Shown here piece by piece: positions 15,154 to 39,010 of a stretch of DNA of 64,000 nucleotides. A program made the translations under genes and the position numbers. The notes beneath the pieces are model-generated. The model was not told the DNA's origin. It saw nothing but the letters and a program-made list of their open reading frames with translations, and searched no databases. Location: the NCBI GenBank assembly GCA_038525525.1, contig JBCBHO010000003.1:572165-636164 (forward strand), given 5' to 3'. Numbering within the stretch: position 1 is the stretch's first letter; every line of letters begins with the position of its first letter. Source of the stretch: Pseudomonadota bacterium (GTDB lineage: Bacteria; Pseudomonadota; Alphaproteobacteria; Rhodobacterales; Rhodobacteraceae).

Positions 15154-16752
15154 GTGCGCGCCGTGAGTTTCGAGGTCAAATACGACGTGGCCGATGAGGC
15201 CCGTGTGGACGCCGTGACCGAGCGCGAGAGCCCGCTGGCACTCGACCGCGCACCGGCCCTGCCGAGCGATCCCGCTGCGCCTGTGGGCTGCCATTCCTCC
15301 GCCGACAGGATGGAGGCCGAGGCGCGCGCCAACGGAAATTCTGAGATGCTCGAGCGCTTTGCCGAGGACTATCCACAGGGCCCGCACGACAAGCCCCAAA
15401 GCATGTGCCCGGCCTTCGGCTCGCTCCGCGTGGGGCTCCGGATGCGGCGGGTCGCGACCGTGCTCTCCGGGTCTGCCTGCTGCGTATACGGGCTCACCTT
15501 CATCAGCCATTTCTACGGCGCCCGGCGCTCGGTGGGCTACGTGCCGTTCAACTCGGAGACGCTGGTGACCGGCAAGCTCTTCGAGGACATCCGCGACAGC
15601 GTCTACAAGATGGCCGACCCCGAGAAGTTCGATGCCATCGTCGTCACGAACCTCTGCGTGCCGACGGCCTCGGGCGTTCCGCTCAGGCTCTTGCCCAACG
15701 AGATCAATGGCGTGCGCGTGGTGGGCATCGATGTGCCGGGCTTCGGCATCCCCACCCATGCGGAGGCCAAGGATGTCCTCGCCGGCGCGATGCTCAATTT
15801 CGCCCGTCAGGAGATCGAGGCGGGCCCCGTGCCCGCGCCCGAGAAGGCGCGCGATGGGCGGCCCACGGTCACGCTTCTGGGCGAGATGTTTCCTGCGGAC
15901 CCGATGATGATCGGCGCGATGCTCGCCCCGCTCGGCCTTGCCGCCGGGCCGGTTGTGCCCTGCCGCGAATGGCGGGAGCTTTACAGCGCGCTCGATTGCG
16001 GCGCGGTGGCGGCCATCCATCCGTTCTATACCGCCGCCATGCGCGAATTCACCGCCGCGGGCAAACCAATCGTCGGTTCCGCTCCCGTGGGCTATGACGG
16101 CACCGCGTCCTGGCTCACGGCCATCGGCGAGGCCTTCGGCCTACCCGCGGCGCGGGTGGATGCCGCCAAGACCGCATTCCTGCCCGCCATAAAGGACGCC
16201 CTCGCGCGGACGCCCATCAAAGGGCGCATCACCCTGAGCGGGTATGAAGGCTCCGAGCTCCTTGTCGCGCGCCTCCTTGTCGAGAGCGGTGCCGATCTCC
16301 GCTACGTGGGCAGTGCCTGCCCCAAGACACCCTATTCCGCCGACGATGCTGCGTGGCTCGAGGCCAAGGGCGTCGAGGTCAAGTTCCGCGCCTCGCTCGA
16401 GGATGACTGCGCCGCCATGGAGGCCCACGACCCTGACCTGACCGTCGGCACGACGCCCGTCGTGCAGAAGGCCAAGGAGCGCGCAATCCCCTCGCTCTAT
16501 TACACCAATCTCATTTCTGCGCGGCCTCTCATGGGCCCTGCGGGGGCGGGATCGCTCGCGACGGTCATGAACGCGGCCATGCAGAACCGGGGTCGCATGA
16601 CTCACATGAAGCGTTTCTTCGAGGGCGTGGGCGGCGGCGACACGGCGGGCGTTTGGGAAGGCGCGCCGAACCTGCGGCCCGATTTCCGCGCCGCTCATCA
16701 GAAGAAGCTCGACAAGCAGGCCCGCGCGGCCAAAGCGGCGGAGATGATCTAG
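15154..16752 (+). CDS. bchY: chlorophyllide a reductase subunit Y (start uncertain: GTG 15154 or GTG 15283)
   Basis: The conserved BchY sequence starts around GCHSS...[22 protein letters not shown]. The first ~43 codons of the ORF are not recognisably BchY. Confidence 0.9.
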
Positions 16753-16779
16753 TGGGCGCGCGTTCAGATATCCGCCGCG

Positions 16780-16866
16780 ATGTGCATCTCGTCCCGGGCT
16801 TGACCCGGGACCTCCGCCTCCCGTTGCGGGCAGAGGCCCCGGATCAGGTCCGGGGCGTGGAGGGCG
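16780..16866 (+). repeat. stem-loop repeat element, copy A (bchY|bchZ junction)
   Basis: Hairpins GTCCCGGG-CTTGA-CCCGGGAC (16791-16811) and GCCCCGGA-TCAGG-TCCGGGGC (16836-16856). It shares a 24-nt identical core with the reverse complement of copy C. Confidence 0.8.
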
Positions 16867-16870
16867 TGCC

Positions 16871-18367
16871 ATGCTAGTGCAGGATCACGACCGCGCGGGC
16901 GGATATTGGGGGGCTGTTTATGCGTTCTGCGCCGTCAAGGGCCTGCAATGCGTGATCGACGGTCCGGTGGGCTGCGAGAACCTGCCGGTGACCTCCGTCC
17001 TCCACTACACTGACGGGCTGCCGCCGCACGAGCTGCCCATCGTGGTGACGGGGCTTGGCGAGGAAGAGCTCGGCCGCGACGGCACCGAGGGCGCCATGAA
17101 GCGCGCCTGGGGCACGCTCGACCCCGCCCTCCCGGCCGTGGTGGTAACGGGCTCCATCGCCGAGATGATCGGCGGCGGCGTCACGCCCCAGGGCACCAAT
17201 ATCCAGCGGTTCCTGCCGCGGACGATCGACGAGGATCAGTGGGAATGCGCGGACCGCGCCATGACCTGGATCTTCACTGAATTCGGGCAAACGAAGGGCC
17301 GCATGCCCCGCGAGGCCAAGCGCGAAGAGGGGTCGAAGCCCCGCGTGAACATCCTCGGGCCGATGTACGGCACCTTCAACATGCCCTCCGATCTCGCGGA
17401 GATCCGGCGCCTCGTCGAAGGCATCGGAGCAGAGATCAACATGACCCATCCGCTCGGCGCGCATGTCGCGGAGATGCGGAACCTCGTCAATGCGGACGTC
17501 AATGTCGTGATGTACCGCGAGTTCGGGCGCGGGTTGGCAGAGCTTCTCGGGAAGCCCTACCTTCAAGCGCCCGTCGGGGTCGAGTCCACCACCAAGTTTT
17601 TGCGGACCCTTGGTGAACTCCTCGGACTCGACCCCGAACCTTTCATCGAGCGCGAGAAGCATTCCACGATCAAACCGGTCTGGGATCTCTGGCGCTCGGT
17701 CACGCAGGATTTCTTTGCCACGGCCTCCTTCGGGATCGTGGCGAACGAGACCTATGCGCGAGGGGTTCGAAACTTCCTGGAGCAGGATCTCGGCTTTCCC
17801 TGCGACTTCGCGGTCGCGCGGTGCCGGGGCAAGAAGACCGACAATGACGAGGTGCGCGCGCTTCTGCACGAGAAGAAGCCGCTCATCGTCTTGGGCTCCA
17901 TCAACGAGAAAATGTACATGTCAGAATTGAAGGCAGGCCATGGTCCGCGGCCCGCCTTCATCCCGGCAAGTTTCCCGGGCGCTGCCATCAGGCGGCACGT
18001 GGGCACGCCCTTCATGGGCTATGCCGGGGCCACTTACCTGTTGCAGGAGGTCTGCAACGGGCTCTTCGACGCGCTCTTCCACATCCTGCCGTTGGGCTCG
18101 GAGCTGGACGCGTCCGAGGCGACACCGACGACGCTGAGGAGCGATTTCCCCTGGGACGAAGACGCCCAGCAGGAGCTCGACCGCATCGTCGCCACCTATC
18201 CGATCCTGACCCGGATCTCGGCGGCCAAGGGGCTGCGCGACCGGGCCGAGAAGGCCGCGCTCGATGCCGGTGCCTCCCGCGTTCTGCGGGAGACGGTGGC
18301 CGCGCTCGCGCAGGACAGACCAGAAGACGCGGCGGCAACGACCGCCGAGGAGGGAGTGACCGCATGA
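16871..18367 (+). CDS. bchZ: chlorophyllide a reductase subunit Z
   Basis: 498 aa. The N-terminus [19 protein letters not shown] is typical of BchZ. Confidence 0.95.
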
Positions 18368-18624: not shown

Positions 18625-18680
18625 CCACACGTCCCGGACCTGACCCGGGACCTCGCCCTCCCGACGGGGGCAAAGAACAG
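18625..18680 (+). repeat. stem-loop repeat element, copy B (pufQ|pufB junction)
   Basis: ACGTCCCGGACCTGACCCGGGACCTCGCCCTCCCGACGGGGGCAAAG aligns nearly base-for-base with copy A over ~50 nt. Confidence 0.75.
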
Positions 18681-29982: not shown

Positions 29983-33507
<3,525 letters not shown>

Positions 33508-37027: not shown

Positions 37028-38909
<1,882 letters not shown>

Positions 38910-38924
38910 GCGGTCTACCCCTCT

Positions 38925-39010
38925 CTGGATCGCGCCCCGGCCCCCGAGCCGGGGCCTCCTGGCGTGGGTCGGGAGAGGTCCCGGATCAGGTCCGGGACGT
39001 GGGGCGCTGA
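38925..39010 (-). repeat. stem-loop repeat element, copy E (bchM|lhaA junction)
   Basis: Hairpins GCCCCGG..CCGGGGC (38934-38955) and GTCCCGGA-TCAGG-TCCGGGAC (38978-38998). It is co-linear with copy C. Confidence 0.78.

Follow-up and report, generated by a model that had tools for sequence, protein, structure and literature searches.

A REP/BIME-like palindromic repeat family as the probable source of stem-loops between photosynthesis genes of a Rhodobacteraceae bacterium

When the same stem-loop recurs between the cistrons of a photosynthesis gene cluster, is it a control element that belongs to the cluster, or a repeat that has settled there as it might have settled elsewhere? The question is raised by a 64,000-nucleotide stretch of contig JBCBHO010000003.1 (assembly GCA_038525525.1; Rhodobacteraceae), referred to below as the window. 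A first-pass annotation, made from the letters alone, had flagged five loci (copies A to E) as carrying one element, had placed the family at junctions of the photosynthesis superoperons, and had remarked on its likeness to REP/BIME elements. Here, we describe the anatomy of these copies, their presence at the same junctions in related genomes, and their distribution beyond the photosynthesis genes, and we weigh the explanations that these data allow.

Hairpin units in the window

The five loci are a genuine repeat family. The pattern GYCCCGGR-N5-YCCGGGRC matches the window exactly at six places, whereas shuffled sequence leads one to expect 0.00 matches, so that the motif is indeed more frequent than chance would make it. 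The 24-nt run said to be shared by copy A and the reverse complement of copy C, GTCCCGGGCTTGACCCGGGACCTC, is exact at 16791 (+) and 33303 (-), and it recurs with 2-3 mismatches at 18631, 37035, and 38975. A repeat search of the window recovered the alignment of A with B (83% identity over 46 nt), that of C, D, and E, and the co-linearity of C and E, which have a variant left-hand unit in common. A covariance model of the unit, trained on 34 copies from other genomes together with eight of the window units and run with filters off, placed nine hairpin units at the five loci with scores of 28-45 bits (Table 1); the left unit of copy C reached its score even though it was outside the training set. 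Because the next match scores just 16.7 bits, we conclude that the window holds no further copies, and neither this search nor a scan with up to six mismatches and simulated controls turned up further degenerate copies in it. All five loci thus lie where they had been placed, except that copy C, previously drawn from 33235 to 33350, is shorter at both ends.

Table 1. Copies and hairpin units in the window, with covariance-model scores and the state of the same site in related genomes (locus labels beginning with L are our own)
Feature	Position	Strand	Site	Description	Score (bits)	Same site in relatives
Copy A	16787..16860		bchY-bchZ spacer	composite		absent from closest genome (L123), unrelated unstructured 155-nt spacer instead; independent composites in L011 and L175
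Copy A, left unit	16787-16815	+		T/A-type, loop CTTGA	42.4	
Copy A, right unit	16832-16860	-		C/G-type, loop TCAGG on + strand	45.3	
Copy B	18627..18675	+	pufQ-pufB	single unit, 18627-18655	40.0	present in L123 (closest genome) and L124
Copy C	33260..33330		inside bchB	composite		present in closest genome only; absent from 85% orthologues (L122; P0003 orthologue 523 aa)
Copy C, left unit	33260-33289	+		decayed	28.1	
Copy C, right unit	33302-33330	-			43.4	
Copy D	37031..37104		bchH-bchL spacer	composite		present in L121 (closest genome); unrelated repeat in L122 and L210; Shimia ponticola (L211) bears its own composite
Copy D, left unit	37031-37059	+			38.8	
Copy D, right unit	37076-37104	-		divergent loop GTGCG	30.9	
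Copy E	38930..39002		bchM-lhaA spacer	composite		kept in L121 and L122; genes overlap in L210 and L212
Copy E, left unit	38930-38959	+		variant C/G-type, 6-nt loop	29.6	
Copy E, right unit	38974-39002	-		T/A-type	43.7	

The unit is ~29 nt long and can be written CNCG-G(Y)CCCGGR-CYTGA-YCCGGG(R)C-CTC, with an 8-bp GC-rich stem around a 5-nt loop. The 8-bp stem had been recognized from the outset, and the loop proposed with it, CYTGA or TCARG, holds generally, with the right unit of copy D as an exception. The idea of a single unit with conserved flanks needs to be revised, since each of the copies A, C, D, and E consists of two units in opposite orientation, with a gap of 13-17 nt (16 nt in copy A) and the CCTC...GAGG sides turned inward. 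Copy B, which begins 6 nt past the pufQ stop and ~220 nt ahead of pufB, has one unit and, after it, a small CCCUCC..GGGGGC hairpin that resembles the spacer of copy A. A CACG flank is common to the window copies and forms a shared flank signature. Of the length of the bchY-bchZ, bchH-bchL, and bchM-lhaA spacers, the copies account for 61-68%.

The inverted-pair composite is also the commonest form in other genomes, mostly with 14-42 nt between the 19-nt cores of its units. Two types of unit can be told apart, a C/G-type (GCCCCGG...CCGGGGC) and a T/A-type (GTCCCGG...CCGGGAC), and strict composites, viewed strand by strand, combine one of each in 49 of 61 views, a tally in which most elements are counted from both strands. 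Tandem arrays of at least three units ~55-110 nt apart, which resemble BIME clusters, were seen in Rhodovulum and Rhodobacteraceae genomes (L043:3696-3932, L095:3841-4025, L002:2822-3035).

As RNA, the copies are predicted to form very stable hairpins (-24 to -58 kcal/mol). Copies A (-57.6 kcal/mol, z = -3.98) and D (-48.4 kcal/mol, z = -3.06) each fold as a single long hairpin; copy E reaches -57.4 kcal/mol (z = -3.43) and copy B, with its one unit, -24.4 kcal/mol. A composite pair can form either two separate hairpins or a single long one, and the hairpins lie just upstream of the ribosome-binding site of the next gene without covering it. A separate observation is a stretch of bchZ (17535-17581, +) that matches the Rfam family PhotoRC-I, probably by chance: In a 2.2-kb search, it scores 21.9 bits (E = 0.0096), below the gathering score of 45.

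Photosynthesis junctions and reading frames in related genomes

An exact-protein look-up of BchZ found no record; relatives were located by way of BchB homologues and identical PufA and PufB proteins. The closest genome, GCA_038533575.1, has a BchB that is 97% identical and DNA that is ~95% identical; in the next relative, GCA_038528385.1, BchB is 85% identical, and the closest named species, Shimia ponticola, stands at 78%. A comparison of orthologous junctions had been proposed as a check on the family, and it reveals presence and absence that vary from site to site (Table 1) rather than a conserved feature of photosynthesis clusters. Copy A is the clearest case. The window and the closest genome diverge only over roughly 16740-16900, with identities of 92-100% per 100 nt leftward to ~16700 and rightward from ~16960, and of 84% in the block 16860-16959. 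Viewed as a test for MITEs, filled and empty sites differ by replacement of the whole spacer and not by a clean insertion with a duplication. At the site of copy B, L126-L128, whose PufB is identical, have a different hairpin pair in the first ~50 nt after pufQ, and the remainder of the pufB leader is conserved.

A broader comparison comes from 80 related metagenomic clusters (BchZ 83-88% identical; 464 kb), in which the family was found only twice, in L175 and L186, where it lies at bchX-bchY and bchY-bchZ. In 52 of 76 clusters, bchY and bchZ overlap through TGATG; the other 24 have a spacer of 55-169 nt, and just one of these spacers (L175) holds the family, while the rest have different sequences, several of them recognizable unrelated repeats of at least one other family. 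Since a stop/start overlap is the usual state of the bchY-bchZ and bchM-lhaA junctions, the spacers there are derived. Photosynthesis junctions of this sort accept inserts of many kinds, and our family has entered them several times independently.

A second, unrelated repeat family occupies the same photosynthesis-cluster junctions in relatives. It consists of a GGGGGC..GCCCCC hairpin and, behind it, a tail resembling CCCCGRGGTATTTTTGG..AAGATGAAG, and was seen at bchH-bchL (L122:15085-15150), at bchN-bchB (L122:9975-9995), at L210:13095-13150, in L084, L105, L112, and L119, and in the bchY-bchZ spacers of L137, L158, L177, L195, L198, L200, L201, and L204. The BchB linkers TPRRFNGKM, SGGSISGKK, and PSGGSTEHK may be in-frame remnants of this second family. 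Short tandem repeats such as cgtcggtattacgtcggtattgcgtcggt are found in the bchY-bchZ spacers of L142, L188, L190, and L158.

Some copies lie within reading frames. Copy C had been placed inside bchB, and it is indeed translated in frame, in a linker between the conserved HHGG motif and the C-terminal region, ahead of the conserved C-terminal helices; both orthologues and solved structures show that this linker varies in length and sequence. BchB is 542 aa long in the window and 514-515 aa in most orthologues. The same protein has a further 10-residue insert at residues 258-268 (32661-32693), common only to the 97% orthologue. The DNA of this insert, GCCGGGCTGAAGCCCGGCCTCC, forms a small palindrome with CCTC after it and looks like a truncated unit; with a score of just 11.2 bits (E = 1.5), any kinship to the unit is conjectural. 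In Shimia ponticola (GCA_007995215.1), a composite at L211:14872-14959 is read as a ~35-residue C-terminal tail of BchM, which has 256 aa there and 216-222 aa elsewhere, and the stop codon of which overlaps the GTG start of lhaA. The unit in this tail translates to EVPGQARDV, the same peptide as in the BchB insert of the window.

Proteins outside the photosynthesis cluster show similar insertions. A CarB with a copy (L023:3474-3492) has 13 extra residues relative to E. coli CarB in an inter-domain loop, and these contain VPGLTRD, the translation of the unit. The unit in ValS (L104:2929-2947) lies within sequence that is extra relative to the Thermus enzyme, and units are in frame in CobN (L059:686-758) and Nnr (L013:5270-5288). 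Overall, a rough screen put about half a dozen of 114 elements, or about 5%, deep in coding-like frames.

Distribution across genomes and the readings it leaves

The distribution of the family does not support the proposal that it is placed at photosynthesis superoperon junctions. When each species was represented by one genome and scanned for AGGTCCCGGRN5YCCGGGAC, at least 120 loci matched, and the family loop (TCARG or CYTGA) is present in 88 of the matches listed. Among these, photosynthesis clusters account for two loci, too few to call enrichment, and the remaining 86 of the 88 are not photosynthesis clusters. Family-bearing loci among the matches listed are mostly from Rhodobacterales, in about 20 named genera that include Roseovarius, Marinovum, Rhodovulum, Tabrizicola, Loktanella, Yoonia, Tropicibacter, and Wenxinia; further carriers are Hyphomonas, Henriciella, Roseibium, and one Devosiaceae genome. 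Matches from Streptomyces, Sphingobacterium, and similar organisms have loops unrelated to the family and are accordingly regarded as chance. There are at least several family loci per genome among the matches listed, and the 88 loci contain 20 extra elements in 668 kb, about one per 33 kb. The genome with the 85% identical BchB, a close relative, has copies at dctP-dctQ and between rpe and a DeoC-like gene.

Within the window, all five loci do lie in the photosynthesis part, as had been stated. This clustering is not significant (P ~0.17), because the cluster covers ~45 of the 64 kb. With five loci per 64 kb in the window versus about one extra element per 33 kb in the other family-bearing loci and three elements per 464 kb in the related photosynthesis clusters, a modest enrichment of the family in photosynthesis clusters is possible.

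By rough gene calls, most copies are intergenic, and units fall between co-directional genes in 75 cases, convergent genes in 38, and divergent genes in four. Their orientation relative to the transcript shows no strand bias (40 vs. 35, p = 0.64). Composites with near-identical spacers recur whole within one genome (L021, L041, and L112), and composites are found on Roseovarius, Salipiger, Marinovum, and Tropicibacter plasmids, most of them without annotation. Only four matches were found in 2.9 million viral contigs, and this near-absence indicates that the family is not mainly phage-borne. A search of the whole window against Rfam gave no match at gathering thresholds, and at permissive E-values the elements drew only chance matches to microRNA hairpins far below threshold. 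Six 17-mers of the element had no occurrence in the literature searched, and none of the papers there describes elements of the REP, REPIN, or MITE type from Rhodobacterales. Elements of this kind are well known; of the present family we found no description, either in Rfam or in the literature searched.

Among the rival explanations, the least improbable is that the photosynthesis superoperons have the copies as dedicated cis-regulatory RNA hairpins, which would govern segmental mRNA stability or processing in the manner of the Rhodobacter capsulatus pufA-pufL hairpins. All five loci are in polycistronic photosynthesis operons and fold very stably, copy B sits in a slot after pufQ where relatives bear another hairpin pair, copy E is retained in the 85% relative, and inserts have been acquired repeatedly at the same junctions. 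There is also a precedent in the puf mRNA, for which segmental stability through RNase E sites and stabilizing structures is established (PMC6238624). We nonetheless consider this reading unlikely. The family is missing from 78 of the 80 related clusters, copy A is missing from its own junction in a genome with ~95% identical DNA, and the genes at two of the junctions commonly overlap outright (bchY-bchZ in 52 of 76 clusters, bchM-lhaA in L210 and L212). Further, copies in other genomes are mostly outside photosynthesis clusters and have no strand bias relative to transcription, one window copy is within a coding sequence, and the closing pair of copy B on the mRNA strand is an A.C mismatch rather than a wobble.

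A palindrome that is highly conserved, loop included, over several orders might instead be a site at which a dimeric host protein binds duplex DNA; a nucleoid protein, gyrase, or a photosynthesis regulator would be candidates, and E. coli BIMEs do bind IHF and gyrase. One argument against such a site is the pattern of change within the stem. In a set of 42 units, standard pairs occupy 96.7% of the stem positions; the loop-closing pair is AU in 20 units, GC in 14, CG in four, and UA in one, the second stem pair is CG in 31 and UA in nine, and the observed covariation was matched by none of 500 shuffles. Such compensatory changes imply that a hairpin is maintained in RNA or single-stranded DNA and not the sequence alone; taken with the coexistence of two unit types within one element, they point to base pairing rather than base-specific recognition. 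In addition, the family avoids divergent intergenic regions, which bear promoters, and its unit does not match TGT-N12-ACA, the consensus of PpsR/CrtJ. We rejected this explanation as highly improbable.

Equally poor, or slightly poorer, are the prospects of intrinsic terminators or attenuators between cistrons. GC-rich hairpins after stop codons, often between convergent genes, would look like terminators, but no T run follows any of the nine window units, the downstream genes of these operons must be expressed, one copy is translated, and both hairpin orientations occur; this reading, too, was rejected. Chance palindromes around CCCGGG sites, which a GC-rich window with many inverted repeats might be expected to produce, can be dismissed with near certainty, given that no matches are expected in shuffled sequence, that loops, flanks, and spacers are conserved, and that stem matches outside Alphaproteobacteria have unrelated loops.

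A probable REP/BIME-like family

We consider it likely that the copies belong to a family of palindromic, non-coding repeats that is of the REP/BIME (REPIN) kind and is spread across Rhodobacterales and some other marine Alphaproteobacteria. A photosynthesis-specific control element is not supported. The suggested likeness to REP/BIME elements was apt in that the family is palindromic and multi-copy, forms inverted pairs of two unit types, lies outside genes or at their 3' ends, and is gained and lost.

Like enterobacterial REP/BIME elements and Pseudomonas REPINs, the family consists of short imperfect palindromes that recur at many places among the genomes compared, at gene 3' ends and between co-transcribed genes, avoids promoters, and varies in presence between close relatives. 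Like the Y and Z REPs of BIMEs, its two slightly different units stand in inverted pairs with a short spacer and, like a REPIN, the pair can fold into one long hairpin (copies A and D) and is copied whole. The differences are equally clear. There is no sequence similarity to REP, BIME, or REPIN elements, and the family is flanked by C(C/A)CG...CCTC where REPs have GTAG. REP and REPIN elements are associated with RAYT genes, whereas a search with E. coli RayT as query (tblastn) found no match in the window, in ~1.7 Mb of loci, or in Rhodobacterales plasmids; this is a weak test for a mobilizing enzyme. In Alphaproteobacteria, RAYT Group 1, more widespread than any other RAYT group, is reported to be rare (PMC5581495). 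The host range of the present family is also wider than that of a REP unit, which tends to be confined to one species or genus, in that its unit is common to several orders.

Three other systems invite comparison. Rickettsia palindromic elements (RPEs) are, like some of our copies, in-frame palindromic inserts at tolerant positions of proteins, positions of the kind represented here by the BchB linker, the CarB inter-domain loop, ValS, CobN, Nnr, and the BchM tail. RPEs are ~100-150 nt long, however, and our elements 21-75 nt; the sequences are probably unrelated, the host group differs, and most copies of our family are intergenic, only about 5% of those examined having looked coding. The puf mRNA hairpins of R. 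capsulatus and R. sphaeroides are stable hairpins in a polycistronic photosynthesis transcript, and copy B lies in the pufQ-pufB leader, where relatives bear other hairpins. They differ from our family in being conserved in position with demonstrated effects on transcript stability, while the present elements are repeats that occur at many places across genomes and are missing from most related clusters. RIME and other rhizobial mosaic repeats are alphaproteobacterial, intergenic, and built of palindromes, with no known transposase; their sequence is another, their units are larger, and their host group is not the same.

If the copies are REP/BIME-like repeats, a composite would spread whole, as an inverted pair with its spacer, perhaps through a transposase that recognizes single-stranded hairpins or through recombination. 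Copies would settle where their sequence is tolerated, at gene 3' ends, between co-transcribed genes, and in flexible linkers and tails of proteins, as a selfish repeat may be expected to persist only at sites where the damage is slight. In the lineage of the window, the photosynthesis cluster would have received four composites and one single unit, passengers that are presumably co-transcribed with the superoperons as stable hairpins. By analogy with REPs and with the stabilizing structures known in puf mRNA, two effects on these transcripts might be expected: Translation of the neighboring genes could be uncoupled, and 3'-to-5' exonucleases could be blocked, so that the upstream mRNA segment would be longer-lived. 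Any effect of the elements on mRNA stability is probably secondary. Most relatives are without the elements, so the photosynthesis cluster does not need them, and the tight overlap of genes at these junctions in most relatives means that a role in mRNA stability is not required. Copy B is perhaps an exception, given that relatives also have some hairpin pair in the slot after pufQ.

Two features fit less simply with a selfish repeat. REP families tend to be species- or genus-specific; with a unit conserved over several orders, the hairpin could serve a conserved host function. Moreover, the repeated invasion of photosynthesis junctions and the presence of hairpins in the slot of copy B would also fit selection for a hairpin there. 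A bolder version of the REP-like reading can be built on these features, although taken as a whole we find it doubtful. It would have a REPIN-like family, hitherto undescribed, whose sharing across orders points to a conserved or often-transferred recognizer, perhaps of a non-RAYT kind; which repeatedly splits stop/start overlaps in operons, the photosynthesis superoperons among them; some copies of which, such as that after pufQ, may have been recruited to stabilize mRNA; and which, like RPEs, is tolerated in frame in essential proteins (BchB, CarB, ValS, and CobN).

The simpler reading, of a REP/BIME-like family carried mainly as passengers, has consequences for how such clusters are interpreted. 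Elements of ~70 nt account for the odd spacers in photosynthesis operons that are otherwise tightly coupled, and for differences in the length of BchB and BchM, and in annotation they should not be taken for conserved regulatory sites. As a repeat with in-frame coding copies and no known transposase that is shared across Rhodobacterales and beyond, the family would bring the REP/REPIN and RPE phenomena into a marine group of ecological importance, and it would supply natural pairs of presence and absence in which the effect of an inserted hairpin on operon expression can be compared.
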